Translations under genes and position numbers: made by a program | From: Gemmatimonadota bacterium | GTDB taxonomy: Bacteria > Gemmatimonadota > Gemmatimonadetes > Longimicrobiales > RSA9 | Length of the DNA: 13,683 bases | Direction: 5' to 3' | Assembly (NCBI GenBank): GCA_040905425.1 | Contig: JBBDRO010000081.1 | Coordinates: 32,022-45,704, forward strand | Notes under the pieces: model-generated | The model's database searches: none | What the model was told of the DNA's origin: nothing | The model's input: the letters and a program-made list of their open reading frames with translations, nothing else | In this document: positions 310-13,583 of the stretch, piece after piece | Position numbering within the stretch: the stretch's first letter is position 1 | How the letters are laid out: the number at the start of each line of letters is the position of its first letter

Positions 310-1716
310 CTATGGAGCGGCGGGGAGCGGCGTGGCCACCAGGACTGCCGTGACGGCCAGCACCGCCAGCGCGACCACCAGCTCGACGACCGCGGAACGC
401 CGCAGCCGCCCGGCTGCGGCTTCGCGCCCGAGCGTCGGTCGGACTTTCAGCCAGTTGTAGGCCCCGGTCCCGAACACCAGCGAGGCCACGCCGAGCTTGA
501 GCAGGAGCGTGCGTCCGTAGCCCGTGCTCCACAGCGCGGACACTTCTCCAAGATGCAGCCAGGCGGAGAACACGCCCGTCGCCACCACCACGCCGGCGAA
601 CACAAGCGCGGTAGGTGAAAACGCGTTGATCAGCGCGGCGGTCGCGGCTTCTGGCCTGGTGGGCTGCCGGAGTGCGACCGGGATACCGGCCGTAACGACC
701 ACCAGCAGTCCCCCCATCCAGCCGCCGGCTCCCAGCACGTGGAACCCGTCCGCCACGATGGCGAGCCAGCCCACGCCCTGCACACCCGCCGCGTGACCTG
801 ACAGGGCGGGTGTGAAGCCCAGGATGCTCGCGCCCACGGCGGCCAAGGTCCAGCCAGCGCGCCCGCGGCTGCCGGTAAGGGCGAGTCCGAAAGCCACCAC
901 CACGATCCCACCGGCCTGCAGCAACCAGCCCAGGCCCCACGTCGTGCCGGCCAGGAGCCACCCGACCCCCGCCGTGTCGAAGGTCTGCACGGGTCCATGC
1001 AGCGCGTACAGTTGGGCGCAGAGTCGGAGAACCAGCGCCACAACCAGCACAACCACCGCCCCGAGGCCGATACGGGCCGCCCGCGAGCTGGCCTTCGCGA
1101 GCAGGGCCGCACGGTTCGACAGGGAGCCGGACCGGTCCACGAGCGGCACCACGAACACCCGGAAGGCCACCACGCCGATCACCCCCAGCAGCCCCACGAA
1201 GGTGAGCCAGCGCACAACCACGTACAGCGGCGACTCGCTGTCGAATTCCGAGAGCGGCACGGCCACGTTCCCGGCGCCGGTGGCTGCCCGCTCCTCCGGC
1301 GCCGTGACCTCCCCCTGACTCGGTGCGGGAGCAAGGCCTGCCGCGTCCGGCCGGATGGTGAAGGTGTACTCGCCGCGTACCGGGTGACCATCCGGGCCGG
1401 CGACCTGCCAGCGGACGGTGTAGGTGCCGGCAACCAGGCGGCCACGCACGGGAGCCACGAGCACCTCGGCCACGCCCGATGCCCGTCGTAGCTCACCAAG
1501 GTCGACCGTCCCCCGGGGCCCGATAAGGGTAAGGTGCGCCAGGCCGAGCTGGACCGGATTGACGAAGGTGAGGCGGAGCTGATCCGGAGCCGCGGCCAGC
1601 GTGTCGCCGCTCGCCGGCATGGCACCCCTCAGCTCTTCATGCGCCGCCGCGCCCGCCGGCAGCGCCAGGAGGCCGAGGATCGATGCGAGCAGCAAGGCGG
1701 TTCGCAACGGGCTCAC
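310..1716 (-). CDS. Copper resistance/uptake CopC-CopD fusion protein (YcnJ-like), 468 aa
   Basis: GTG at 1716 overlaps the ATPase stop (GTGA). Signal peptide ...AGAAA|HEEL gives an N-terminal His; CopC motif YTVRWQVAGPDGHPVRGEYTF; Pro/Ala linker; multi-TM CopD domain with ALSGHAAG, DGFHVLGAGGWMGGL, FSPTA, YGRTLLLK. The ORF-track start at 1872 lies inside the ATPase gene. Confidence 0.9.
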   Translation of the reverse strand: MSPLRTALLLASILGLLALPAGAAAHEELRGAMPASGDTLAAAPDQLRLTFVNPVQLGLAHLTLIGPRGTVDLGELRRASGVAEVLVAPVRGRLVAGTYTVRWQVAGPDGHPVRGEYTFTIRPDAAGLAPAPSQGEVTAPEERAATGAGNVAVPLSEFDSESPLYVVVRWLTFVGLLGVIGVVAFRVFVVPLVDRSGSLSNRAALLAKASSRAARIGLGAVVVLVVALVLRLCAQLYALHGPVQTFDTAGVGWLLAGTTWGLGWLLQAGGIVVVAFGLALTGSRGRAGWTLAAVGASILGFTPALSGHAAGVQGVGWLAIVADGFHVLGAGGWMGGLLVVVTAGIPVALRQPTRPEAATAALINAFSPTALVFAGVVVATGVFSAWLHLGEVSALWSTGYGRTLLLKLGVASLVFGTGAYNWLKVRPTLGREAAAGRLRRSAVVELVVALAVLAVTAVLVATPLPAAP

Positions 1717-3740
1717 AGCTCGACCCGCTTCAGAAGCTGGGCGTTGAAGGCAACGATCACCGTGCTGGCCGACATGAGCACGGCGCCCACGGCCGGCGTG
1801 AGCAGGATCCCCCAGCCGGCCAGGACACCCGCCGCCAACGGAATCGCGAGAATGTTGTAGCCCGCGGCCCACCAGAGGTTCTGCACCATCTTCCGGTAGG
1901 TGGCGCTGGAGAGTGAGATGATGCGCGGGATGTCGCGGGGGTCAGACCGGACCAGGACGATGTGGCCCGCCTCCACGGCCACGTCGGTGCCCGCGCCGAT
2001 GGCGATCCCGATGTCGGCGGTAGCCAGGGCGGGGGCGTCATTGACGCCGTCGCCCACCATGGCCACCCGCTTCCCCTGCTGCTGAAGCTCACGCACCTTC
2101 GACGCCTTGTCCTCGGGCAGCACCTGCGCGAAGACGGTGTCGATGCCCAGCTCCTCGGCCACCGCGTCGGCCACCGCCTGCGCGTCGCCGGTGAGCATGG
2201 CTACCTCAACGCCACGTTCGTGCAGGGCGTCGATGGCCTGCCTGCTCTCCTCCCGGATGGCGTCGGCCACGGCGAAGACCGCCAGCGCCTCACCATTGCG
2301 GAGCAGGTAGATGGCCGCCTGACCCCGCTCCGCCGCGCGGTCGGCCGCCTCACGCACGGCCTGCGGTACCGATGCGTCCTCCGCCTCCAGCAGCGCCGGG
2401 CCGCCCATGTGGTACTCGGCGCCGTCCACGCTCGCGGCCACGCCCTTTCCCGTGATCGCACGGAACCCGTCCGCGCCCGGAATCTCGAGCTCCCGATCCT
2501 CCGCCGTCTTCACGATTCCGCGGGCGATGGGGTGCTCCGACTCCGTCTCCACCCCGGCGGCGATCCGCAGCGCCTCCTCTTCGGACAGGTCCCCGGCCAC
2601 GGCCAGGTCCACCACCCGGAACTCCCCGAGGGTGAGCGTGCCGGTCTTGTCGAATACCACGACATCCAGGTTCCGCGCTTCCTCGAGGCCGCGCCGGTCC
2701 CGCACCAGCAGCCCGTTCTGAGCGCCCAGGGTGGTGGAGATGGCCACCACCAGCGGGACCGCCAGACCCAGCGCGTGGGGGCAGGCAATCACCAGCACCG
2801 TGACCGTGCGAATGATGGAGAAGTCGATGGGTGCGCCGATGAGCTGCCAGACCACCAGTGTGATGAGCGCCGCGGATACGGCCACGCCGGTCAACATCTG
2901 GGCTGCGCGGTCCGCCAGGTGCTGGGCGCGGGACTTCGACTGCTGGGCGTCGGAGACGAGGCGCATGATCCCGGACAGCGCCGTCTCGTCCCCCGTTCCC
3001 GTCACCTCCAGCCGCAGCGACCCCTCGCCGTTGATGGTGCCGGCGATCACCTCGTCGCCCGCGCCCTTCTTCACCGGTCGCGACTCGCCGGTGATCATGG
3101 CCTCGTTCAGGGCGCTCTCGCCCTTTCGCACCACGCCGTCCACGGGAACGCTCTCGCCAGGGCGGACCAGCACCAGGTCGCCCCGGCTCAGCTCGCCCAC
3201 GGGCACCTCCTCCTCCTCCCCGTCTTCGCCGATCCGGCGCGCCGTGTCGGGGAGCAGCTTTGCCAGCTCCTGCAGTGCCCCCTGGGCCTGGTTGATCGAG
3301 CGCATCTCGATCCAGTGGCCCAGTAGCATGATGGTCACCAGCGTCGCCAGCTCCCACCAGAGCGGCTCCGCCTCCAGCAGCCCCAGCTCGACCACCCAGG
3401 AGAAGACGAACGCCACCACGATGGCCAGCGAGATGAGCGTCATCATGCCGGGCAGCTTTGCCCGGAGCTCGCCCATGGCGCCCCGGATGAAGACCCAGCC
3501 GCCGTAGAAGAAGATCACCGTGGAGAGGACGGGGCCGATCCAGTCCGCGCCGGGAAACGACGGGGCCGTGTAGCCGAGCAGCATCTGGACGTGCTCGGCC
3601 CAGAAGACCACCGGGACCGTCAGGATCAGCGACAGCCAGAACTTGCTCCGGAACATGCCCACGCTATGCCCGGCATGGGCGTCATGGTCACCGTGGTCCT
3701 GGTGGCCGTGATCGCGACCAGTGTGGCGATGTTCACTCAT
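1713..3740 (-). CDS. copB: Heavy-metal-translocating P1B-3 type ATPase (CopB-like copper exporter), 675 aa
   Basis: His-rich N-terminus (HRH...DHGHQDHGDHDAHAGH), TGES, transmembrane CPH (IACPHALGL), DKTGTLT, SEHPIA, GDGVNDAP, GYN and MSAST metal-site motifs typical of P1B-3 ATPases. Confidence 0.95.
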   Translation of the reverse strand: MSEHRHTGRDHGHQDHGDHDAHAGHSVGMFRSKFWLSLILTVPVVFWAEHVQMLLGYTAPSFPGADWIGPVLSTVIFFYGGWVFIRGAMGELRAKLPGMMTLISLAIVVAFVFSWVVELGLLEAEPLWWELATLVTIMLLGHWIEMRSINQAQGALQELAKLLPDTARRIGEDGEEEEVPVGELSRGDLVLVRPGESVPVDGVVRKGESALNEAMITGESRPVKKGAGDEVIAGTINGEGSLRLEVTGTGDETALSGIMRLVSDAQQSKSRAQHLADRAAQMLTGVAVSAALITLVVWQLIGAPIDFSIIRTVTVLVIACPHALGLAVPLVVAISTTLGAQNGLLVRDRRGLEEARNLDVVVFDKTGTLTLGEFRVVDLAVAGDLSEEEALRIAAGVETESEHPIARGIVKTAEDRELEIPGADGFRAITGKGVAASVDGAEYHMGGPALLEAEDASVPQAVREAADRAAERGQAAIYLLRNGEALAVFAVADAIREESRQAIDALHERGVEVAMLTGDAQAVADAVAEELGIDTVFAQVLPEDKASKVRELQQQGKRVAMVGDGVNDAPALATADIGIAIGAGTDVAVEAGHIVLVRSDPRDIPRIISLSSATYRKMVQNLWWAAGYNILAIPLAAGVLAGWGILLTPAVGAVLMSASTVIVAFNAQLLKRVEL

Positions 3741-6234: not shown

Positions 6235-7143
6235 GTGATAAGCCGCGTTCCTGAAGCCGGCTTCGCCGCGCTCGTTGAACTGCTACGCGGCCGCCGGATC
6301 GTGGTCCTGGCGGGCGCGGGGTGCAGTACGGAGTCGGGCATTCCCGACTACCGCGGGCCCGCGGGGAGCCTGCGCCGCCGTGCGCCCATCCAGTACCAGG
6401 AGTTCGTACGCAGCTTGGAGGGACGGCAGCGCTACTGGGCACGCAGCGCCGTCGGCTGGCCGCGCTTCACCGCGGCCCGGCCCAACGCCGCACACCGGGC
6501 ACTGGCGCAGCTCGAGGCGGTGGGCGCGTTGCGCGGCGTCATCACGCAGAACGTGGACGGGCTGCACCACGCCGCCGGCAGCCGCCGGGTGGTCGAGTTG
6601 CACGGCTCGCTGGCGTGGGTGCGCTGCCTGGAGTGCGGCAGCCGGGTGCGGCGGGCCGCCCTGCAGCAGCGGCTCCTGGCCATGAACGTGGGGTGGACGG
6701 AGCGGCTGCGGAGCGCCGCGGACGCGGTGCGGATCGAAAGCGCTCCGGATGGTGATGCCGAACTGCCGCCCGCCGCGCTCACGAGCTTCCGCGTGCCCGA
6801 CTGCGCGGACTGCCGCGGCCTGCTGAAGCCGGACGTGGTGTTCTTCGGGGAAAACGTCCCCCGGGAACGGGTGGACGAGGCGTGGCGGCTCTTCCACGAG
6901 GCCGATGTACTGCTGGTAGTGGGCTCCTCGCTGGCCGTCTACTCGGGCCGCCGTTTCGTCTACATGGCGCGGGACACGGGGCTCCCCGTGGCGGTGGTCA
7001 ACCTGGGGCCCACGCGCGCGGATGAGATGGCCGCCGTCAAGGTGGAGGGGTCGGTAGGCGTGCTTCTGCCCCGCCTCGCGGAGGAACTCGGTGCACCCCA
7101 CACCGCCACCCTGCCCGCGCCCCGGCCATTTTCAAAAATGTGA
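6235..7143 (+). CDS. cobB: NAD-dependent protein deacylase, Sir2 family class II (SIRT4-like), 302 aa
   Basis: GAGCSTESGIPDYRG, RQRYWARS, ITQNVDGLH, VELHG, Zn ligands CLEC/CADC, APDGD, LKPDVVFFGE, VGSSL, NLGPTRAD. Confidence 0.95.
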   Translation: MISRVPEAGFAALVELLRGRRIVVLAGAGCSTESGIPDYRGPAGSLRRRAPIQYQEFVRSLEGRQRYWARSAVGWPRFTAARPNAAHRALAQLEAVGALRGVITQNVDGLHHAAGSRRVVELHGSLAWVRCLECGSRVRRAALQQRLLAMNVGWTERLRSAADAVRIESAPDGDAELPPAALTSFRVPDCADCRGLLKPDVVFFGENVPRERVDEAWRLFHEADVLLVVGSSLAVYSGRRFVYMARDTGLPVAVVNLGPTRADEMAAVKVEGSVGVLLPRLAEELGAPHTATLPAPRPFSKM

Positions 7144-7214
7144 GGTGCGCAGGCCGGGAGCGGGCGAGTGCACGCCGCTCGGAGCTTTCGGACAGTCCGT
7201 CGCGTGGTTGAGCC

Positions 7215-7236
7215 AAAATATTCTATAGAATATTTT
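7215..7236. promoter_or_regulatory. Perfect 22-bp AT-rich palindrome, probable operator of an unknown dimeric regulator
   Basis: AAAATATTCTATAGAATATTTT is its own reverse complement; 20 of 22 bases are A/T in a GC-rich context. The palindrome is certain, the function is inferred. Confidence 0.55.
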
Positions 7237-7362
7237 CGCGGCAGATCGGGCCGGACCGTGGTTCTGTGCCGAGCGTTCCAGCTCCTACCTCCCGGCGCTC
7301 CATCTCCCCACGAGGCGGCGGCCATGGAAGCGGGGACCGACTCTTGTGGCGGCCGAACCTGC

Positions 7363-7391
7363 TTGACGCCGCGCCACGCGAGCCTTATGCT
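7363..7391 (+). promoter_or_regulatory. Sigma70-type promoter for the SAM-II leader / sulfur operon
   Basis: TTGACG (7363-7368), 17-bp spacer, TATGCT (7386-7391); predicted start near 7398, just upstream of the aptamer. Confidence 0.8.
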
Positions 7392-7404
7392 GGCGGTTCG
7401 ACAA

Positions 7405-7458
7405 TCCGTCGTGGTGATTTGCCGCCGCTTGCCGCCACGTAAAACAAGGTGCTAAAAC
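7405..7458 (+). ncRNA. SAM-II (SAM_alpha-type) riboswitch aptamer
   Basis: CGTGGTGATTTG-CCGCCG-CTTGC-CGCCACG-TAAAA-CAAG-GT-GCTAAAA follows the alphaproteobacterial SAM-II pattern (CGUGGUGAUUUG...GCUUGCAGCCACGUUAAACAAGUCGCUAAA). P1 is 7410-7415/7434-7439; pseudoknot CTTG 7428-7431 / CAAG 7445-7448; precedes sulfur genes. Confidence 0.85.
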
Positions 7459-7464
7459 GCGACT

Positions 7465-7499
7465 GCCCGGCGGCTGTTTTCGCCGGGCTTTTCGTTTTT
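7465..7499 (+). terminator. Intrinsic terminator 1 (riboswitch expression platform)
   Basis: Stem GCCCGGCG (7465-7472) / CGCCGGGC (7481-7488), followed by TTTTCGTTTTT. Confidence 0.85.
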
Positions 7500-7526
7500 C
7501 CGGGACCCACACGCCGAAGGCGCACG

Positions 7527-7598
7527 ATGCCGTTCTGCCACCTGATGTGCATGTGCCGCGAGTGTACGGCTCTTCCACGCGGAGAGGCCGCCCCGTAG
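7527..7598 (+). CDS. Putative Cys/Met-rich attenuator leader peptide, 23 aa (MPFCHLMCMCRECTALPRGEAAP)
   Basis: GAAGG (7516-7520) 6 nt before ATG; 4 Cys and 2 internal Met codons within codons 4-13; TAG 7596-7598; followed by mutually exclusive hairpins and a terminator. Confidence 0.72.
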   Translation: MPFCHLMCMCRECTALPRGEAAP

Positions 7599-7645
7599 AC
7601 GTGCGCGCCCTGGTGGCGCACCGGCCCAGAGCCGGCACGATGCGC

Positions 7646-7678
7646 GGGCTCCTCTCCATGCGAGAGGGGCCCTTTTTT
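7646..7678 (+). terminator. Intrinsic terminator 2 (attenuator 3:4 hairpin)
   Basis: 11-bp stem GGGCTCCTCTC (7646-7656) / GAGAGGGGCCC (7662-7672) with one G-U pair, loop CATGC, then TTTTTT; ends 21 nt before the start codon at 7700. Confidence 0.88.
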
Positions 7679-7699
7679 ATTGCACCCGGAGGAAAGGTC

Positions 7700-8686
7700 A
7701 TGAGCAGACTCGGCATCTACTACGAGCACCCCGACTGGTTCGAGCCGCTGTTCCAGGAGTTGGAGCGGCGCGACGTGCCCCACGCCCGCATCGACGCGCG
7801 GTCGCATGGGTTCGATCCCACCGGGGAGGTGGAATGGGACGTCGCTTTCAACCGTATGAGTCCCTCTTCGTGGCTGCGCGGTGCGGGACACGCCATCAGC
7901 TACACCGGGGAATTCCTGGCGCATCTGGAGCGGCGCGGCGTACGGGTGATCAACGGTACGCGCGCCTGGCGGACGGAGGTTTCGAAGGCGGCGCAGATCG
8001 CGCTGCTCGAGCGGCTGGGACTGCCCCATCCGCGCACGCGCGTGTGCAACAATCCGGCGGCGCTTGCGGACAAGGCGGAGGGGCTACGCTACCCCGTGAT
8101 CGTGAAGCCCAACGTGGGTGGCAGCGGCGCCGGCGTCCGCCGCTTCGACGATCCGGTGGCGCTGGCCGCCTGGGCATCCCGTGGCGGCCCGGACGCGGGG
8201 GTGGATGGCACCCTGCTGGTGCAGGAGTACGTGCCACCGGAGGCCGGCCGCATCGTGCGCGTGGAGGTGCTGAACGGCCGCTTCCTTTACGCCATCCGCA
8301 TCTACGCGCCGGCGGACAGCTTCAACCTGTGCCCCGCCGACGTGTGCCAGGGGGTGGACGGCGCCGAACTCAGCCGCTCCGCCTGCGCGGTGGACGCCCC
8401 GCGCAACGGTCTGCGGGTCGAGGCATACGTGCCGCCGAGAGGAATCATCGCCGAGGTGGAGCGCATCACGGCCGCCGCGGGCATCGAGATCGGCGGCGTG
8501 GAGTACGTCGTGCACGAGCGGGCCGGCGGGCACGTCTTCTACGACGTGAACGCGCTGTCCAACTTCGTGGCGGACGGCCCGCGGGTGCTGGGCTTCGATC
8601 CGTTCGCCCGGCTGGCCGACTGGCTGGAGGCGGAGCTGGACGGCGCCGCGCGTGCTCCGCGCGCCTCCGGACTGGAGGTGGCGTGA
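7700..8686 (+). CDS. ATP-grasp ligase, RimK / glutathione-synthetase-like, 328 aa
   Basis: GGAGGAAAGG before ATG 7700; MSRLGIYYEHPDWF, FNRMSPSS, VING, SKAAQ, YPVIVKPNVGGSGAGV, LVQEYV, GGVEY, YDVNALSNF. The ORF-track start at 7547 runs through the leader RNA. Confidence 0.88.
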   Translation: MSRLGIYYEHPDWFEPLFQELERRDVPHARIDARSHGFDPTGEVEWDVAFNRMSPSSWLRGAGHAISYTGEFLAHLERRGVRVINGTRAWRTEVSKAAQIALLERLGLPHPRTRVCNNPAALADKAEGLRYPVIVKPNVGGSGAGVRRFDDPVALAAWASRGGPDAGVDGTLLVQEYVPPEAGRIVRVEVLNGRFLYAIRIYAPADSFNLCPADVCQGVDGAELSRSACAVDAPRNGLRVEAYVPPRGIIAEVERITAAAGIEIGGVEYVVHERAGGHVFYDVNALSNFVADGPRVLGFDPFARLADWLEAELDGAARAPRASGLEVA

Positions 8687-9732
8687 TGCGCTTCGGTTAT
8701 TGGCTCCCCGTCTTCGGTGGCTGGCTGCGCAACGTGGAGGACGAGCGCATGGAGGTGTCCTGGCCCTACGTGAGCCGCCTGGCCCGGCGCAGTGAGGAGA
8801 TCGGCTTCGACCTGACGCTCATCGCCGAGCTGAACCTGAATGACATCAAGGGGGAGGAGGCGCCCTCGCTGGACGCGTGGAGCACGGCGGCGGCGCTGGC
8901 CGCCGTGACCGAGCGCCTGGAGCTCATGGTGGCGGTTCGCCCCACCTTCCACCACCCCGCCACGTTCGCCAAGCAGGCCGCCAATATCGACCACATCAGC
9001 GGCGGCCGGCTGTCCATCAACGTGGTCTCCGCGTGGTGGGCCACCGAGGCGCGGCGCTACGGCATCCGCTTCGACCCCCACGACGAGCGCTACGCGCGCA
9101 CCGCCGAGTGGCTGCGGGTGGTGAACGGCATGTGGACCGAGCCCGTCTTCACCCACCGCGGCCACTACTACACGGTGGAGGAGGCCATCCTGGAGCCCAA
9201 ACCGCTCCGTCGGCCCCGGCCGACGGTCTATGCCGGCGGCGAGTCACCCGCTGGCAAGGCGCTCATTGCCGAGCACTGTGACGCGTGGCTGACGCACGGG
9301 GATCCGCCCGAGGTGATCGCCCCGAAGCTGGCCGACATGCGGGAGCGGCGCGCGCGGCATACGGGCGCACCCCCCATGCCCTTCGGCGTGGCGGGCTACG
9401 CCATCGTGCGGGACAGTGAGCGTGCGGCACAGAGGGAGCTGGAGCGCATCACGGACGTGCGCCAGAGCGCACGCGGCTTTGCCAACTACCAGGACTGGAT
9501 CGGCAACACGCAGCTCGAACGCAAGGTCAGCCTGGCCGACTACTCCGTCTCGAACCGCGGGCTGCGCGCGAGGCTGGTGGGCACCCCCGAGCAGGTGGCC
9601 GAGCGGATCCTGGCCTTCGAAGCGGCGGGCGTGGAGTTGCTGCTGCTCCAGTTCAGTCCCCAGTACGAGGAGATGGAACGCTTCGCGGCCGAGGTGATGC
9701 CGCTCGTGCGGCGCGAGTCGGCCGCCGCGTGA
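8686..9732 (+). CDS. Luciferase-like (LLM) flavin-dependent monooxygenase, SsuD/SfnG-like, 348 aa
   Basis: ATG overlaps the upstream TGA (TGATG); MRFGYWLPVFGGW, GFDLTLIAE, ELMVAVRP, DHISGGRLSINVVSAW, EPKP, VYAGGES, LVGTPEQVAE. Substrate not determinable from sequence. Confidence 0.92.
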   Translation: MRFGYWLPVFGGWLRNVEDERMEVSWPYVSRLARRSEEIGFDLTLIAELNLNDIKGEEAPSLDAWSTAAALAAVTERLELMVAVRPTFHHPATFAKQAANIDHISGGRLSINVVSAWWATEARRYGIRFDPHDERYARTAEWLRVVNGMWTEPVFTHRGHYYTVEEAILEPKPLRRPRPTVYAGGESPAGKALIAEHCDAWLTHGDPPEVIAPKLADMRERRARHTGAPPMPFGVAGYAIVRDSERAAQRELERITDVRQSARGFANYQDWIGNTQLERKVSLADYSVSNRGLRARLVGTPEQVAERILAFEAAGVELLLLQFSPQYEEMERFAAEVMPLVRRESAAA

Positions 9733-9735
9733 GCC

Positions 9736-9789
9736 GCGATTCGTACCTTCGGCACGGCGTTTCGTACCAGCGCTCAGGCAATCCGTGGC
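9736..9789 (+). promoter_or_regulatory. Direct repeats with 21-bp period, LytTR-family-like binding site
   Basis: GCGATTCGTACC (9736-9747) and GCGTTTCGTACC (9757-9768), 11/12 identical; weaker third copy GCAATCCGTGGC (9778-9789). Confidence 0.45.
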
Positions 9790-9904
9790 TGAAGCGAAAC
9801 CATCCCCCCGCCCGCTCCGTCCAAGTCAGCGTGCGGGGAAGGCAGACCATGCAGACCACATGTTCTCTCCCCCGCGAAAACCCGAGGCAAACGGAGAGAC
9901 GACC

Positions 9905-10408
9905 ATGAGGACCAAGCGAGTGATCACGACGGCGGCGGCGGCGCTGATGCTGGCCTTCCAGGCCAACCCGGCCGCGGCTGGCGAGCCCGATATCAAGAAG
10001 GCCGACGAGCTGAAGGCCCAGGCCGTCCAGCTCTTCGACCAGCCGGACCGCTGGCTGGAGGCGGCGCGGCTGCTGGAGAAGTCGGTGGAGTACCGGGACG
10101 CCGCCGATGCGGAGACCCACGCCAGTCTCATGACGGCCGCCGGCATCTGGATGAGTGCCGGGGAGTACAACCGGGCCTACAGCGCAGCACGGCGGGCGGG
10201 CGAGAGCGCCCATGCCCGCGGCGCCGTCCAGGACGCGGCCCACAGCTTCATCAGCGCGGCCGCGGTGGCCGCCCAGTTGGGCCGGACCGGAGACGCCGAG
10301 CAGCTCATGGAACGCGCGCGTGTGCTGGCCGCCTCGCCGCTGCTGAATCAGCAGCAGCGGGACCGCATCCTGGCTCGTGACATGCAGTTCGTGGCCGTGC
10401 GCGGCTAG
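9905..10408 (+). CDS. Secreted alpha-helical (TPR-like) hypothetical protein, 167 aa
   Basis: GGAGA before ATG 9905; signal peptide MRTKRVITTAAAALMLAFQANPAAA|GE; Ala-rich helices such as WLEAARLLEKS, GEYNRAYSAARRAGE, LGRTGDAEQLMERA. Confidence 0.75.
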   Translation: MRTKRVITTAAAALMLAFQANPAAAGEPDIKKADELKAQAVQLFDQPDRWLEAARLLEKSVEYRDAADAETHASLMTAAGIWMSAGEYNRAYSAARRAGESAHARGAVQDAAHSFISAAAVAAQLGRTGDAEQLMERARVLAASPLLNQQQRDRILARDMQFVAVRG

Positions 10409-10433
10409 CCTTTCGCGCCGGCTCGCCCATGAA

Positions 10434-10468
10434 GCGGGGCCGCCTTCCCTGGGGAGGCGGCCCCGTTC
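10434..10468 (+). terminator. GC-rich hairpin, probable terminator after the secreted protein gene
   Basis: CGGGGCCGCCTTCC / GGGAGGCGGCCCCG stem of about 14 bp; U-tract is weak (TTC). Confidence 0.55.
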
Positions 10469-10542
10469 GCGTCCAGCCTTCCGCCGCGCACACGCGGAAT
10501 TCCCCCCGCCACGATCGCGGAGGTATCCCCACGACACGGCCA

Positions 10543-10570
10543 TTGACTCTGGTGACCTGGCATGTAACTT
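10543..10570 (+). promoter_or_regulatory. Sigma70-type promoter of the apbE operon
   Basis: TTGACT (10543-10548), 16-bp spacer, TAACTT (10565-10570). Confidence 0.55.
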
Positions 10571-10573
10571 AGT

Positions 10574-10594
10574 TGCGAACGATTCTCAATCGCA
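10574..10594 (+). promoter_or_regulatory. Putative Fur box
   Basis: TGCGAACGATTCTCAATCGCA: TGCGA/TCGCA dyad; inner 19 bp match GATAATGATAATCATTATC at 11/19 by hand; overlaps the predicted transcription start. Confidence 0.65.
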
Positions 10595-10606
10595 TTCTAA
10601 GCGACG

Positions 10607-11746
10607 ATGAACGGCATGCCCCAACGCTGCACCTCACGCTCCACGCCACGCCCGCTCCGGCGGGCGGTGACGATCGTGACCGTGCCCCTCCTGCTCGCGG
10701 GCGGTGGCCTGGTGGGGGGCGGTGGCGTGTTCGCGGGCGCTGCAGTGGCGGCCGAGCGGCAGCCGGCACCCGGCGCCGAACGGGCGGACGTGTGGCTGGC
10801 GCGCGAGAGCTTCGTCATGGGCACGCTCCTCCGCCTGGAGGTTGCGGCGCCGACCCGGGCGGCGGCGGCGGAGGCCAGCGAGCATGCGCTGGCGGCGGTG
10901 CATCGGCTGGATGGCCTGCTCTCCACCTGGGACGGGAGCGCCGAGATGGCACGGCTGAATGCGGCATCCGCGGGCAGCTCCGCCGCGGTGTCGGCCGCGC
11001 TACTGGCGCTCCTGCTGGAGGCGGAGGTGTGGTCCAAGCGCACCGGCCGGGCGTTCGAGCCGGCCGTGGGACCTCTGATCGACGCCTGGGAGCTGCGCGG
11101 GGAGGGCCGCGTGCCTGACGGGGCGGCGTTGCGCGCTGCGCTGCGCGCCGTGCGGGCCGGCGTGACGCTGGACGCCGCGGCCGGGACTCTCACGCGCAAC
11201 GACCCGGCCGGGTGGATCGACACGGGCGCGTTCGGCAAGGGCGCCGCGCTCGCCGCCGCGGCCGACGCGCTGCGCACGGCGGGCGTGGCTGACGCGGTGC
11301 TCGATTTCGGCGGCCAGATCATGGCCCTTGGCCGGCCGGCGGACGGCGGCGGGTGGCGGGTTCCCGTAGCCCACCCGCGCCACCGGCACCAGGCCGTGGG
11401 AGAGCTTCTGCTGAGGGACGTATCGGCCGCCACGAGCGGCGCCTCGGAGCGCTTCATCGAGGTGGACGGCCAGCGCTACGGGCACCTGCTCGATCCCCGC
11501 ACTGGCCAGCCGGTACCCGCATGGGGGAGCGTGACCGTGGTGGCCGCTGACCCCCTGGCCGCGGACGCCCTGTCCACGGCGCTGTTCGTCCTCGGCCCCC
11601 GCGCCGGCATGGCCTGGGCGCGGGACCGGGAGGATGTGGCGGTCCTCTTCCTGGAGGATACGCCCCGGGGCCTCGTGCCCCACTGGAACCCCGCAATGGA
11701 GCGGTGGTTGACCCGAACGATCCAAACCGAGAGGACGCTACGATGA
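10607..11746 (+). CDS. apbE: FAD:protein FMN transferase (ApbE)
   Basis: FVMGT, LSTWDGSAEMARLN, AFEPAVGPLIDAW, IDTGAFGKG, VLDFGGQI, ATSGASERF, YGHLLDPRTG, ADALSTALFVLG; N-terminal hydrophobic export signal. Start uncertain (10607 or 10616). Confidence 0.92.
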   Translation: MNGMPQRCTSRSTPRPLRRAVTIVTVPLLLAGGGLVGGGGVFAGAAVAAERQPAPGAERADVWLARESFVMGTLLRLEVAAPTRAAAAEASEHALAAVHRLDGLLSTWDGSAEMARLNAASAGSSAAVSAALLALLLEAEVWSKRTGRAFEPAVGPLIDAWELRGEGRVPDGAALRAALRAVRAGVTLDAAAGTLTRNDPAGWIDTGAFGKGAALAAAADALRTAGVADAVLDFGGQIMALGRPADGGGWRVPVAHPRHRHQAVGELLLRDVSAATSGASERFIEVDGQRYGHLLDPRTGQPVPAWGSVTVVAADPLAADALSTALFVLGPRAGMAWARDREDVAVLFLEDTPRGLVPHWNPAMERWLTRTIQTERTLR

Positions 11747-13011
11747 GCGTATCGAGATGGGCGGTGGTGGTGCTGGGCGCCGCGCTGCTATGGACCCCCA
11801 CGGAGGCGGCGGCGCAGGAGCGGCCCGACTCGGTGAAACTGGCGGAGCTGGAGCGGCGCATGGACGCCATGACGCGCGAGCTGGAGCAACTCCGGTTGGG
11901 GCGTGAGGTGGTGCAGGCCGATACGTCCATCCTGGGGCTGGGGCCGGCCGCGTCCAAGGTCTACAAAGTAGGCCAGGGCGTCTCGCTTGGCGGCTACGGG
12001 GAGATCCTGTACGAGAACTATTCCGGCGAGCGCCAGGACGGCTCTCCCGCCAGCGCGCGTGACCAGGTGGACGCCCTGCGCGCCATCCTGTACGTGGGCT
12101 ACAAGTTCAACGACCGTTTGCTCTTCAACTCCGAGATCGAGATCGAGCACGTGGACGAGATCTTCCTGGAATTTGCCTACGTGGACTACCTGCTGAACGA
12201 CCACGTGGGTCTGCGTACGGGGCTGCTGTTGGCCCCCATGGGTATCGTCAACGAACTGCACGAGCCGCCCACGTTCCTGGGCACCGAGCGGGCCGTGACC
12301 GAGAACGCCATCATCCCCACCACCTGGCGGGAGAACGGCATCGGTCTGTTCGGCGGAGTGGGAGACTTTGCCTGGCGGGGGTACGTCATGAACGGGCTTG
12401 ACGGCGCGGGCTTCAGCGGCTCGGGGCTGCGCGGCGGGCGGCAGAAGGGCGCCCGGGCGCTGGCGGAGGACTTCGGTGTGGCCGCGCGCCTGGACTACCA
12501 GGGCATTCTCGGCCTGCTGGCCGGCGGCTCCGTCTACTACGGCCAGTCGGGCCAGAACGCGGAGCTGGACGGGCAGGAGGTGGACGCCGGCACGCTCATC
12601 TGGGACGGGCACCTGGACTACAATGTGGGTGCGTTGGACCTGCGGGCGCTGGTGGCGGGCGCGCACGTGAACGACGCGCGCGAGCTCAGCGCCCTCAACG
12701 GCCTCACGGGCGCCAACGGCATCGCGGAGTCCATGCTGGGCTGGTACGTGCAGGCCGGCTATGACGTGCTGCGCGGCACCGACATGGCCGACCAGCTCAT
12801 CCCGCACGTCCGCTACGAGCAGGTGAACACGCAGCGGAGCGTACTCGAAGGCTTCGCGGCCAACCCCGCGAACGACCGGACCATCCTCACCGTGGGCGCG
12901 TCCTGGAAACCCATCAGCAACGTGGTGTGGAAGACGGACTACCAGATCCACTCCAACGAGGCCGACCTGGGTACGAACCAGTTCAACATGGCGCTCGGAT
13001 GGATCTTCTGA
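11743..13011 (+). CDS. Outer-membrane porin-like beta-barrel with N-terminal coiled coil, 422 aa
   Basis: ATGA overlap with the apbE stop, GAGGA upstream; signal peptide ...TEAAA|QE; coiled coil KLAELERRMDAMTRELEQLR; motifs FNSEIEIEH, EFAYVDY, NELHEPPTF, IIPTTWRENG; C-terminal LGWIF barrel signature. Confidence 0.85.
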   Translation: MSVSRWAVVVLGAALLWTPTEAAAQERPDSVKLAELERRMDAMTRELEQLRLGREVVQADTSILGLGPAASKVYKVGQGVSLGGYGEILYENYSGERQDGSPASARDQVDALRAILYVGYKFNDRLLFNSEIEIEHVDEIFLEFAYVDYLLNDHVGLRTGLLLAPMGIVNELHEPPTFLGTERAVTENAIIPTTWRENGIGLFGGVGDFAWRGYVMNGLDGAGFSGSGLRGGRQKGARALAEDFGVAARLDYQGILGLLAGGSVYYGQSGQNAELDGQEVDAGTLIWDGHLDYNVGALDLRALVAGAHVNDARELSALNGLTGANGIAESMLGWYVQAGYDVLRGTDMADQLIPHVRYEQVNTQRSVLEGFAANPANDRTILTVGASWKPISNVVWKTDYQIHSNEADLGTNQFNMALGWIF

Positions 13012-13583
13012 GCCCGCTACGGGCGGCGGCGGCGCGGGGGCTCCTCCTGGGAGCCCTCGCGGCGCTCGCGCTGCCGGGCGCCGCGGCCGCCCAGCTGTTC
13101 ATGAGCCAGGAGGAAGCGCTCCGCCTGGCCTTTCCGGCACCGGCCACCATCGAGCGGAAGACGGCGTACCTCACGGACGCCGAACTCGCCCGGGCCAGGG
13201 AGCTGGCCGGCGATCGCGTTGAGGTGGAGCAGGGCATCGTCACCCACTACGTGGGTCGGCGCGGCGGAGCTGCGGTGGGCGTGGCCTACTTCGACGCGCA
13301 CCGGGTGCGCACGCTCCCCGAGGTGCTGATGATCGTGGTGGGGCCCGACGGGCGCGTGCAGCGGGTGGAGGTGATCAAGTTCACGGAGCCGCCCGACTAC
13401 GTGGCACCGGACGGGTGGCTGGCGCAGTTCCTGGATCGGCGCCTGGATGGCCGGCTCTCCACGAAGGCTGACATCGTGAACATGACGGGCGCCACGCTCA
13501 CGTCGCGCGCCGTCACCGACGCGGTCCGGCGGGTGCTCGCCCTGCATCAGGTGATCGGGCCGCTGGAGGACCGGGGGCGGTGA
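12999..13583 (+). CDS. Extracytoplasmic FMN-binding protein (ApbE substrate), 194 aa
   Basis: ATG 12999 overlaps the porin end by 13 bp; signal peptide ...LPGAAAA|QLFMSQEEALRLAFP; HRVRT, FTEPPDY, WLAQF; flavinylation motif IVNMTGATLTS ([S/T]GA[S/T]). Confidence 0.88.
   Translation: MDLLSPLRAAAARGLLLGALAALALPGAAAAQLFMSQEEALRLAFPAPATIERKTAYLTDAELARARELAGDRVEVEQGIVTHYVGRRGGAAVGVAYFDAHRVRTLPEVLMIVVGPDGRVQRVEVIKFTEPPDYVAPDGWLAQFLDRRLDGRLSTKADIVNMTGATLTSRAVTDAVRRVLALHQVIGPLEDRGR

Follow-up and report, generated by a model that had tools for sequence, protein, structure and literature searches.

The 13,683-nucleotide (nt) window analysed here (assembly GCA_040905425.1, contig JBBDRO010000081.1, positions 32,022 to 45,704 of the forward strand; all coordinates are those of this stretch) contains, upstream of a RimK-like ATP-grasp gene, a leader in which a SAM-II riboswitch precedes a short open reading frame (ORF) rich in cysteine (Cys) and methionine (Met) codons. 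This leader of a soil or sediment bacterium has two transcriptional stop signals in series, the second of which is most likely set by ribosome stalling at Cys and Met codons. The sulfur-related operon behind it is probably made only when signals for S-adenosylmethionine (SAM) and for Cys/Met both report shortage. From its sequence and conservation, we consider it likely that the leader (7363–7699) is a two-sensor gate, composed of the SAM-II riboswitch with a first terminator (T1), followed by a ribosome-mediated Cys/Met attenuator with a second terminator (T2). Every part of the leader is of a known kind; the series of SAM-II riboswitch and leader peptide is apparently undescribed, and it recurs in the family to which the window belongs.

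An earlier note, made from the letters of the window alone, had proposed this succession of elements, and the promoter, the SAM-II aptamer, T1, T2 and the ribosome-binding site (RBS) of the ATP-grasp gene were all located within 7363–7702, on the + strand, as are the leader elements and the two genes behind them described below. The promoter-like site (7363–7391) consists of a -35 hexamer TTGACG (7363–7368), a 17-nt spacer and a -10 hexamer TATGCT (7386–7391), with 9 of 12 matches. It was the only such site found in a scan of positions 6900–8000 with a sigma-70-like consensus, against 0.1 expected from shuffled sequences, and it lies upstream of the aptamer. By eye, TTGAC(G/A)-N17-TAnnnT-like hexamers were recognized at the corresponding position of the four further orthologous leaders that carry SAM-II. 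The aptamer (Rfam SAM_alpha, 7401–7475), with P1 at approximately 7410–7415 paired with 7434–7439, overlaps at its 3' end the 5' arm of T1 (7465–7499; stem 7465–7488, U-tract TTTTCGTTTTT at 7489–7499), which is the predicted SAM-II expression platform.

Behind T1, a weak Shine-Dalgarno (SD) sequence, GAAGG (7516–7520), precedes the leader ORF MPFCHLMCMCRECTALPRGEAAP (7527–7598), which runs from the ATG at 7527–7529 to the TAG at 7596–7598. The ORF coordinates were taken from a position ruler over 7100–7900; the 23 codons and the Cys/Met richness reported in the earlier note were thereby retained, and its position was moved one base upstream. Four Cys and two internal Met codons (Cys4, Met7, Cys8, Met9, Cys10 and Cys13; 7536–7565) make up the putative sensor. 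Segment 1, CGGCTCTTCC (7567–7576), begins 2 nt past the last Cys codon and forms the 5' arm of hairpin 1:2, and segment 2, GGAGAGGCCGCCCC (7581–7594), with the stop codon directly 3' of it, has segment 1 and the 5' arm of T2 as alternative partners. T2 (7646–7678) consists of an 11-pair stem (7646–7672), formed by segment 3, GGGCTCCTCTC (7646–7656), a loop (7657–7661) and segment 4, GAGAGGGGCCC (7662–7672), and of the U-tract TTTTTT (7673–7678). The RBS, GGAGGA (7688–7693), and the ATP-grasp start codon at 7700 follow. Three terminator-like sites were found in the scan, corresponding to two distinct hairpins and a nested variant of T2, against 0.8 expected, and the positions of the two U-tracts agree with the 3' ends that had been predicted near 7495 and 7678. 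A short ORF with an ATG, six Cys/Met codons within codons 4–13 and conservation in frame is separated from the ATP-grasp gene by an intrinsic terminator.

In the proposed mechanism, transcription would start near 7398 and the SAM-II riboswitch would act as a first sensor of the OFF type. With SAM bound, the aptamer would keep its P1/pseudoknot strand, T1 would fold and RNA polymerase would stop near 7495; without SAM, GCCGCC (7431–7436) would pair with GGCGGC (7469–7474) and block T1. Transcripts that pass T1 would be translated from the ATG at 7527, the second sensor being a classical ribosome-mediated attenuator. When either Cys-tRNA or Met-tRNA runs short, stalling within codons 4–13 would place the ribosome over segment 1; segment 2 would then be available to the 5' arm of T2, and polymerase would read through into the ATP-grasp and monooxygenase genes. 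Under good charging, the ribosome at the stop codon (7596) would sit on segment 2, and when no ribosome is present hairpin 1:2 would form; in either case T2 would form and transcription would end near 7679. The output would approximate the product of two read-through probabilities and be high only when SAM and Cys/Met-tRNA charging are both low, a two-input logic of the not-or (NOR) type that follows from the two terminators standing in series. What the sequences show are the elements themselves, how far they are conserved and how they pair; SAM binding, translation of the ORF, stalling, termination at both sites and the mutual independence of the two gates are what we infer.

The SAM-II assignment put forward in the earlier note was confirmed with Rfam SAM_alpha (RF00521), which matched 7401–7475 over model positions 1–79 of 79 with 41.3 bits (gathering score 36; E 1.5e-6). 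It was the only SAM_alpha match in the whole 4.1-Mb genome, and it lies upstream of a sulfur-related operon with the T1 hairpin and U-tract directly 3' of it. T1 has a 9-pair GC-rich stem followed by TTTTCGTTTTT, and its hairpin alone was calculated at -17.8 kcal/mol. The alternative pairing of GCCGCC in the aptamer with GGCGGC in the 5' arm of T1, a putative antiterminator, appeared in nascent-RNA folds of the window, L003 and L007 (three of five leaders), as would be expected of a termination platform. By eye, the T1 hairpin (GCCCGGCGGC ... GCCGGGC) and a U-rich tail are kept in most of 14 related SAM-II leaders. At relaxed thresholds, no second Rfam family was found in 7140–7760: the best other match, RF01726 (21 bits, cut-off 44), overlapped the same aptamer, and the rest were chance-level matches (E > 0.6). 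A second riboswitch in 7500–7680, also considered, was rejected when this relaxed scan gave nothing credible there.

Windows of eight codons with at least five Cys/Met codons are rare in this genome (101 in 8,241,214 frame positions), and the chance expectation of one in the 147 nt between T1 and T2 was approximately 0.002. Conservation of the run was investigated in a collection of 101 orthologous ATP-grasp loci, to which relatives contributed 21 and named genome records 80. After removal of four loci that were too short or contained N, 97 leaders of 400 nt, among them the window, a duplicate contig (L033, identical to L003) and the near-identical L019–L021, were scored for Cys/Met codons in the best open 8-codon window, with the reverse complements as control. 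Scores of at least five of eight were reached in 38 of the 97 leaders and in none of the 97 reverse complements, and scores of at least four of eight in 52 leaders and eight reverse complements. Some of the counts given here and below include loci from unpublished genomes (L008, L009, L016, L124, L130 and L136), on which no conclusion depends. Positive loci belonged to Gemmatimonadota, Acidobacteriota, Methylomirabilota, Limnocylindria and Eisenbacteria, with runs such as MMMCMCC and MCACCMCM (Gemmatimonadota), MAMCCCMCMC (Acidobacteriota and Limnocylindria) and MCMCAC (Methylomirabilota). Order, length and codon choice differ from run to run, TGC and TGT both being used, but the position in frame 3' of an ATG is constant. 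In most leaders the run is followed by a hairpin with a U-tract, 40–100 nt upstream of the ATP-grasp start codon.

In the window, hairpin 1:2 (7567–7576 with 7581–7590) was calculated at -14.3 kcal/mol and the antiterminator helix 2:3 (7581–7594 with the 5' arm of T2) at -17.1 kcal/mol. MAFFT alignments of the leaders (A2 and A3) were out of register at the terminator, and from A3 RNAalifold retrieved no more than hairpin 1:2 and one central hairpin; they were replaced by an alignment based on a covariance model. This model, R1, was built from 14 leaders with helices 1:2 and 3:4 only, and its 25 full-length matches were aligned as A6; alignment A5, with antisense and partial matches, was left out of the counts. 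Helices 1:2 and 3:4 were together 95% paired in A6, with compensatory changes at 16 pairs (60 cells), a level reached by none of 500 shuffles. Helix 1:2 was 91.3% paired with five compensatory pairs, and helix 3:4 reached 97.2%, with compensatory changes at 11 of its 13 pairs; the alignment had been fitted to that structure.

Helix 2:3 lay outside this fit, since A6 was fitted to the terminator conformation (1:2, 3:4). Its seven pairs were nevertheless 91.1% paired, against 54–75% when the partner was slid by 1–3 columns, and four of the seven had changed on both sides (for instance A-U to C-G and G-C to A-U in L119), as was reached by three of 500 shuffles. In 44 of 45 leaders segment 2 started at most 25 nt past the last Cys/Met codon, against 36 with shuffled arms. 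In the stalled-ribosome fold of the window's leader, 0.91 of the bases of the T2 5' arm paired with segment 2, against 0.63 for shuffled arms. Weighed with the less favourable results given below, we rate the predicted antiterminator 2:3 as likely.

Several other comparisons of helix 2:3 with controls discriminated little. A long-range 2:3 helix was recognized by eye in 19 of 20 folds, the window left out, and shuffled arms performed nearly as well. Duplex z-scores against shuffled arms lay mostly between 0 and -2 and were not decisive, and a swap test based on the longest common substring was uninformative, as 43 of 45 terminators fell into a single group on account of their GC-rich outer stems.

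Between segment 2 and T2, a small conserved hairpin of the CCGAG...CTCGG type was observed at approximately 7625–7641 (A3 columns 86–104). Four of its five pairs show compensatory changes, and in most relatives it stands directly after the stop codon of the leader ORF; it may be a pause site or a spacer. Eight loci of Acidobacteriota and Limnocylindria (L047, L054, L055, L057, L063, L065, L070 and L071) carry a variant of the attenuator without segment 1. In these leaders of the MAMCCCMCMC type, an exact copy of the 3' arm of the terminator (GAGCGGCC) is found 3–7 nt past the last Cys codon, and the position of the ribosome alone would choose between antiterminator and terminator. In four leaders without SAM-II (L015, L016, L018 and L019) the ATG of the short ORF was placed by eye approximately 7–10 nt after a -10-like hexamer, and these ORFs may, by analogy with those of mycobacteria, be leaderless.

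The co-occurrence of aptamer and Cys/Met ORF that the earlier note had led one to expect was borne out: a search of 60 loci with Rfam at gathering score placed SAM_alpha upstream of the short ORF in the window and in four other ATP-grasp genomes (L003, L005, L007 and L032), and found no other riboswitch class before the short ORF in other phyla. One promoter-like site followed by two terminators in the window, and the same series in these five ATP-grasp loci, are consistent with two sensors in tandem. Within the order, SAM_alpha matches were obtained in 57 of 121 genomes, above cut-off in 22, and the best 29 loci were fetched, 27 of them with enough downstream DNA. Thirteen of these 27 had a short ORF with at least four of eight Cys/Met codons and a second terminator 176–227 nt behind the aptamer; with L112 (three of eight) and L123 (found by R1) the tandem was present in 15 of 27. 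All 13 SAM-II loci fetched from the window's family had aptamer, T1, Met/Cys ORF and T2 in series. In sister families the aptamer mostly stands immediately before metH or metX, with no short ORF. In one sister family (L127, L128, L131 and L135–L140) SAM_alpha lies immediately before metH and no leader ORF is present; the tandem layout is therefore family-specific within the order.

The series of SAM-II, T1, Met/Cys ORF and T2 recurred before several genes of the methionine pathway, and in other phyla the short ORF and its terminator occurred alone, before orthologous ATP-grasp operons. The tandem was found before metY, encoding O-acetylhomoserine sulfhydrylase (L114, L121 and L125), the homoserine dehydrogenase gene (L116, L120 and L123), a thrC-like gene (L112, L119, L122 and L124), metX (L132) and the ATP-grasp gene (L118, which coincides with L007). 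Of the three homoserine dehydrogenase leaders, L116 (MMMMMMRM) and L120 (PMMMRRMMM) have runs of Met without Cys, and the third, in L123, has a poorly defined ORF in which Cys and Met are mixed; all tandem leaders other than those of homoserine dehydrogenase mix Cys and Met. This pattern suggests that the putative ribosome sensor is tuned per operon. That codon content follows the downstream gene speaks against two other readings of the run, as an RNA motif or protein-binding site and as part of a peptide on which the ATP-grasp enzyme would act. Among 46 genomes of the family, R1 found such attenuators in 26, with 1–3 in each, and it found one in the window's own genome, where a crude scan for Cys/Met ORFs with terminators gave ten candidates and a strong terminator at this locus only. 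These counts point to a small regulon in the family that would be read by ribosomes. The thrC-like gene of four of these loci scores above cut-off with TIGR00260 and has an N-terminal CxxC...CxxC stretch; its role may lie in making methionine or homocysteine and not threonine.

We lean slightly towards a wider reading, in which the family uses an undescribed modular RNA grammar that joins SAM-II to a ribosome-read leader with codons tuned per operon, the leader module being present in at least five phyla. Met-only runs would then belong to homoserine dehydrogenase, and mixed Cys and Met runs to metY, the thrC-like gene and the ATP-grasp/monooxygenase genes. Each operon would compute "low SAM AND low charged tRNA", and the leader-peptide module alone would have spread with the ATP-grasp operon.

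Several observations weigh against a two-sensor gate at this locus. A search of sequencing runs for the stretch gave 22 DNA entries, three of which, all from one study, contained at least half of the query words, and no RNA run. A sigma-70 consensus scan may fail to see a promoter of another type between T1 and the short ORF, and orthologues without SAM-II do have a promoter immediately 5' of that ORF. The sensor run of the window is sparser than in relatives (five of eight codons, against up to eight of eight), and by eye the SD of the short ORF, weak in the window (GAAGG), is absent or badly spaced in several relatives. In stalled-ribosome folds of 58 loci, pairing of the T2 5' arm with positions +13 to +44 was 0.63 against 0.57 for shuffled arms, a difference with a Wilcoxon p of 0.003 among kin that are not independent. 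An ungapped 8-mer swap test matched 28 of 45 leaders with their own arms and 520 of 1660 combinations with foreign arms. The arm is C-rich and its partner G-rich; together with the weak gains in the fold and swap tests, this indicates that much of the complementarity is compositional. Finally, the U-tract of T1 is weak in L003 and L032.

The weak U-tracts of T1 in these two loci would fit a hierarchical arrangement, in which SAM-II acts mainly on the leader ORF, through its start or the supply of transcript, and T2 is the decisive stop. T1 would then be a pause or a weak stop, and an untranslated ORF would let hairpin 1:2 form and T2 terminate (super-attenuation). The start of the short ORF lies only 22–38 nt behind T1 in the five ATP-grasp loci, and behind the metA SAM-II switch of Sinorhizobium meliloti a second terminator seemingly stands outside control by the switch (PMC9373788). 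However, T1 of the window is canonical, its hairpin and U-rich tail are conserved in most of the 14 related leaders, the 3' strand of the aptamer is complementary to the 5' arm of T1 as in a termination platform, and no pairing of the aptamer with the start region of the short ORF was seen. The hierarchical arrangement was thus judged unlikely, and T1 is read here as a stop in its own right within the two-sensor gate.

The weak or absent SD and the weak thermodynamic specificity of the antiterminator would also be expected if the second element did not sense ribosomes at all, but were a structured RNA (a riboswitch or a protein-bound attenuator) or a leaky terminator behind an untranslated ORF; (ATGTGC)n-like repeats could, on this account, be an RNA motif or a protein-binding motif. 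Against this, codon identity is conserved in one frame behind an ATG and the nucleotide sequence is not: runs are reordered, TGC and TGT are mixed, and the runs in homoserine dehydrogenase leaders are Met-only. The reverse complements were without enrichment, no Rfam family matched, and the Cys/Met run always ends right before hairpin 1:2. A second element that senses something other than the ribosome was accordingly considered improbable, and a ribosome-read attenuator at T2 is retained.

That the short ORF encodes a functional Cys-rich peptide, either a substrate or precursor of the ATP-grasp enzyme or a metal-binding peptide, with T2 as a leaky stop, is very improbable: ATP-grasp enzymes can modify ribosomal peptides, and the ATP-grasp protein weakly matches the peptide maturase model TIGR04187 of NCBIfam (29 bits, cut-off 350), but the same type of ORF stands before metY, homoserine dehydrogenase, thrC-like and metX genes with no ATP-grasp gene behind it, its conserved LPxGEA coincides with RNA helix 1:2, which has compensatory changes, and the position of its stop codon varies from +12 to +78 nt. 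Precursor genes often have a leaky terminator behind them. The candidate reading of the ORF as a precursor of a peptide that is made on the ribosome and modified afterwards (RiPP) was rejected on the same evidence.

In the full-text literature, with subscription-only papers outside the search, no SAM riboswitch in series with a Cys/Met leader peptide and no publication on SAM-II in Gemmatimonadota were found. The earlier note, likewise, knew of no described example of this hybrid; the mixing of metabolite and ribosome sensing in one leader is described for Salmonella mgtA and mgtCBR (PMC3641672). In the mgtA and mgtCBR leaders, RNA sensing (of Mg2+ or ATP) is combined with a short ORF containing proline codons (Lee and Groisman, 2012; PMC3641672), so that direct RNA sensing and a codon-rich ORF that senses tRNA charging share one leader, as proposed here. 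Those leaders, however, use interleaved structures that act through Rho on unrelated signals, with no intrinsic terminators, whereas the present leader has two separate modules, two intrinsic terminators and two presumed readouts of one pathway.

Two sensors in series, each with its own terminator, are found in Bacillus clausii metE, where tandem SAM and adenosylcobalamin (AdoCbl) riboswitches require both ligands to be low for expression (NOR), as described in PMC3641672; unlike in metE, the second sensor here would be a translating ribosome that reads tRNA charging instead of an aptamer. The SAM-II riboswitches of Alphaproteobacteria (Corbino et al., 2005, PMC1273637; Scheuer et al., 2022, PMC9373788) share the aptamer family with the window, and its termination platform is like that predicted for S. 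meliloti metZ (PMC9373788). As in S. meliloti metA, a second terminator follows the SAM-II aptamer. The authors could assign no input to the metA terminator (PMC9373788); in the present leader, from a Gemmatimonadota host, the second terminator stands behind a Cys/Met ORF with an alternative pairing, which constitutes a plausible input.

With classical attenuators of the Escherichia coli trpL and Salmonella hisL type (10.1101/834739), the leader shares a short ORF with the sensed codons, competing 1:2, 2:3 and 3:4 helices and a terminator before the first structural gene. It differs from them in that Cys and Met would be sensed, in hosts from Gemmatimonadota, Acidobacteriota and other phyla, that the attenuator stands behind a riboswitch with its own terminator, and that variants without segment 1 exist in Acidobacteriota. 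Polycysteine leaderless ORFs of mycobacteria were experimentally shown to be translational attenuators with a sequestered RBS (Canestrari et al., 2020; 10.1101/834739), and Cys leader peptides were predicted in Actinobacteria, in a survey that found no terminator hairpins (Seliverstov et al., 2005; PMC1262725). Common to both groups and to the present leader are upstream runs of Cys codons that sense, or here would sense, charging of Cys-tRNA and control sulfur or cysteine genes as a group; the present leader differs from both in the intrinsic terminator behind its run, in the Met codons among the Cys codons and in the SAM riboswitch in front. Upstream of cysS in Rhodobacterales, the uORFC-8-2 motif, a predicted ribosome-mediated attenuator (Brewer et al., 2021; PMC8632094), likewise has Cys codons in an upstream ORF and a terminator stem with a U run. 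It has two tandem Cys codons only, with no Met codons and no riboswitch in series, and it controls an aminoacyl-tRNA synthetase gene, with no tie to an operon for biosynthesis or scavenging.

A riboswitch and a leader-peptide attenuator usually count as alternative answers to one problem; here they are apparently combined routinely, in series, on one leader. Through such a gate the cell would weigh its SAM pool against the Cys and Met available for translation before it commits ATP, reduced flavin and oxygen to sulfur chemistry. If the proposed mechanism is correct, the leader would be a two-input RNA logic gate, natural and compact, in which the sensing of a ligand is combined with that of ribosomes, and its relatives would form the first family of Cys/Met attenuators with terminators outside Proteobacteria and Actinobacteria. 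They would also provide a regulatory signature that places the pair of ATP-grasp and SsuD/SfnG-like genes, and the thrC-like gene with its zinc-ribbon, in methionine or sulfur metabolism. The arrangement may, furthermore, suggest what input the so far unexplained second terminator of S. meliloti metA, downstream of its SAM-II switch, responds to.

The first gene behind the leader (7700–8686; 328 amino acids) encodes, judged from its sequence, a divergent RimK-like ATP-grasp protein. It matched the RimK family PF08443 with 21.6 bits and TIGR00768 with 69.9 bits, the latter below the cut-off of the model, and its nearest solved structures in a search of the PDB were RimK and LysX, both weak (E 1e-6 or weaker). 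An LdmS-like Asp-Met ligase (PMC9486568) was also considered as a relative and rejected: the PDB search detected no similarity of the ATP-grasp protein to it, which leaves a functional analogy only. The second gene (8689–9732; 347 amino acids), starting 3 nt past the ATP-grasp stop, encodes a luciferase-like flavin monooxygenase of the SsuD/SfnG group, with 216 bits for PF00296 and 253.6 bits for the SfnG model TIGR04021, below the cut-off of 383. Among solved structures it matched 3rao (1e-129), the alkanesulfonate monooxygenase 8vw6 (8e-100) and an SfnG structure (7e-53). The monooxygenase gene adjoins the ATP-grasp gene in 18 of 20 orthologous loci. Because of these family names and the regulation described above, we infer a role of the pair in sulfur scavenging or salvage.

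Neither a terminator nor a promoter was seen in 9600–10700. Farther downstream, genes for an ApbE flavin transferase and an FMN_bind domain protein lie within 10607–11746 and 12927–13583. Upstream of the leader, a gene for a Sir2-family deacetylase (6235–7143) ends approximately 220 nt before the promoter. Two large ORFs on the - strand (310–3740) encode, by their translations, what we take to be a copper resistance protein of the CopC/CopD type and, with a DKTGTLT motif, a P-type ATPase for heavy metals.

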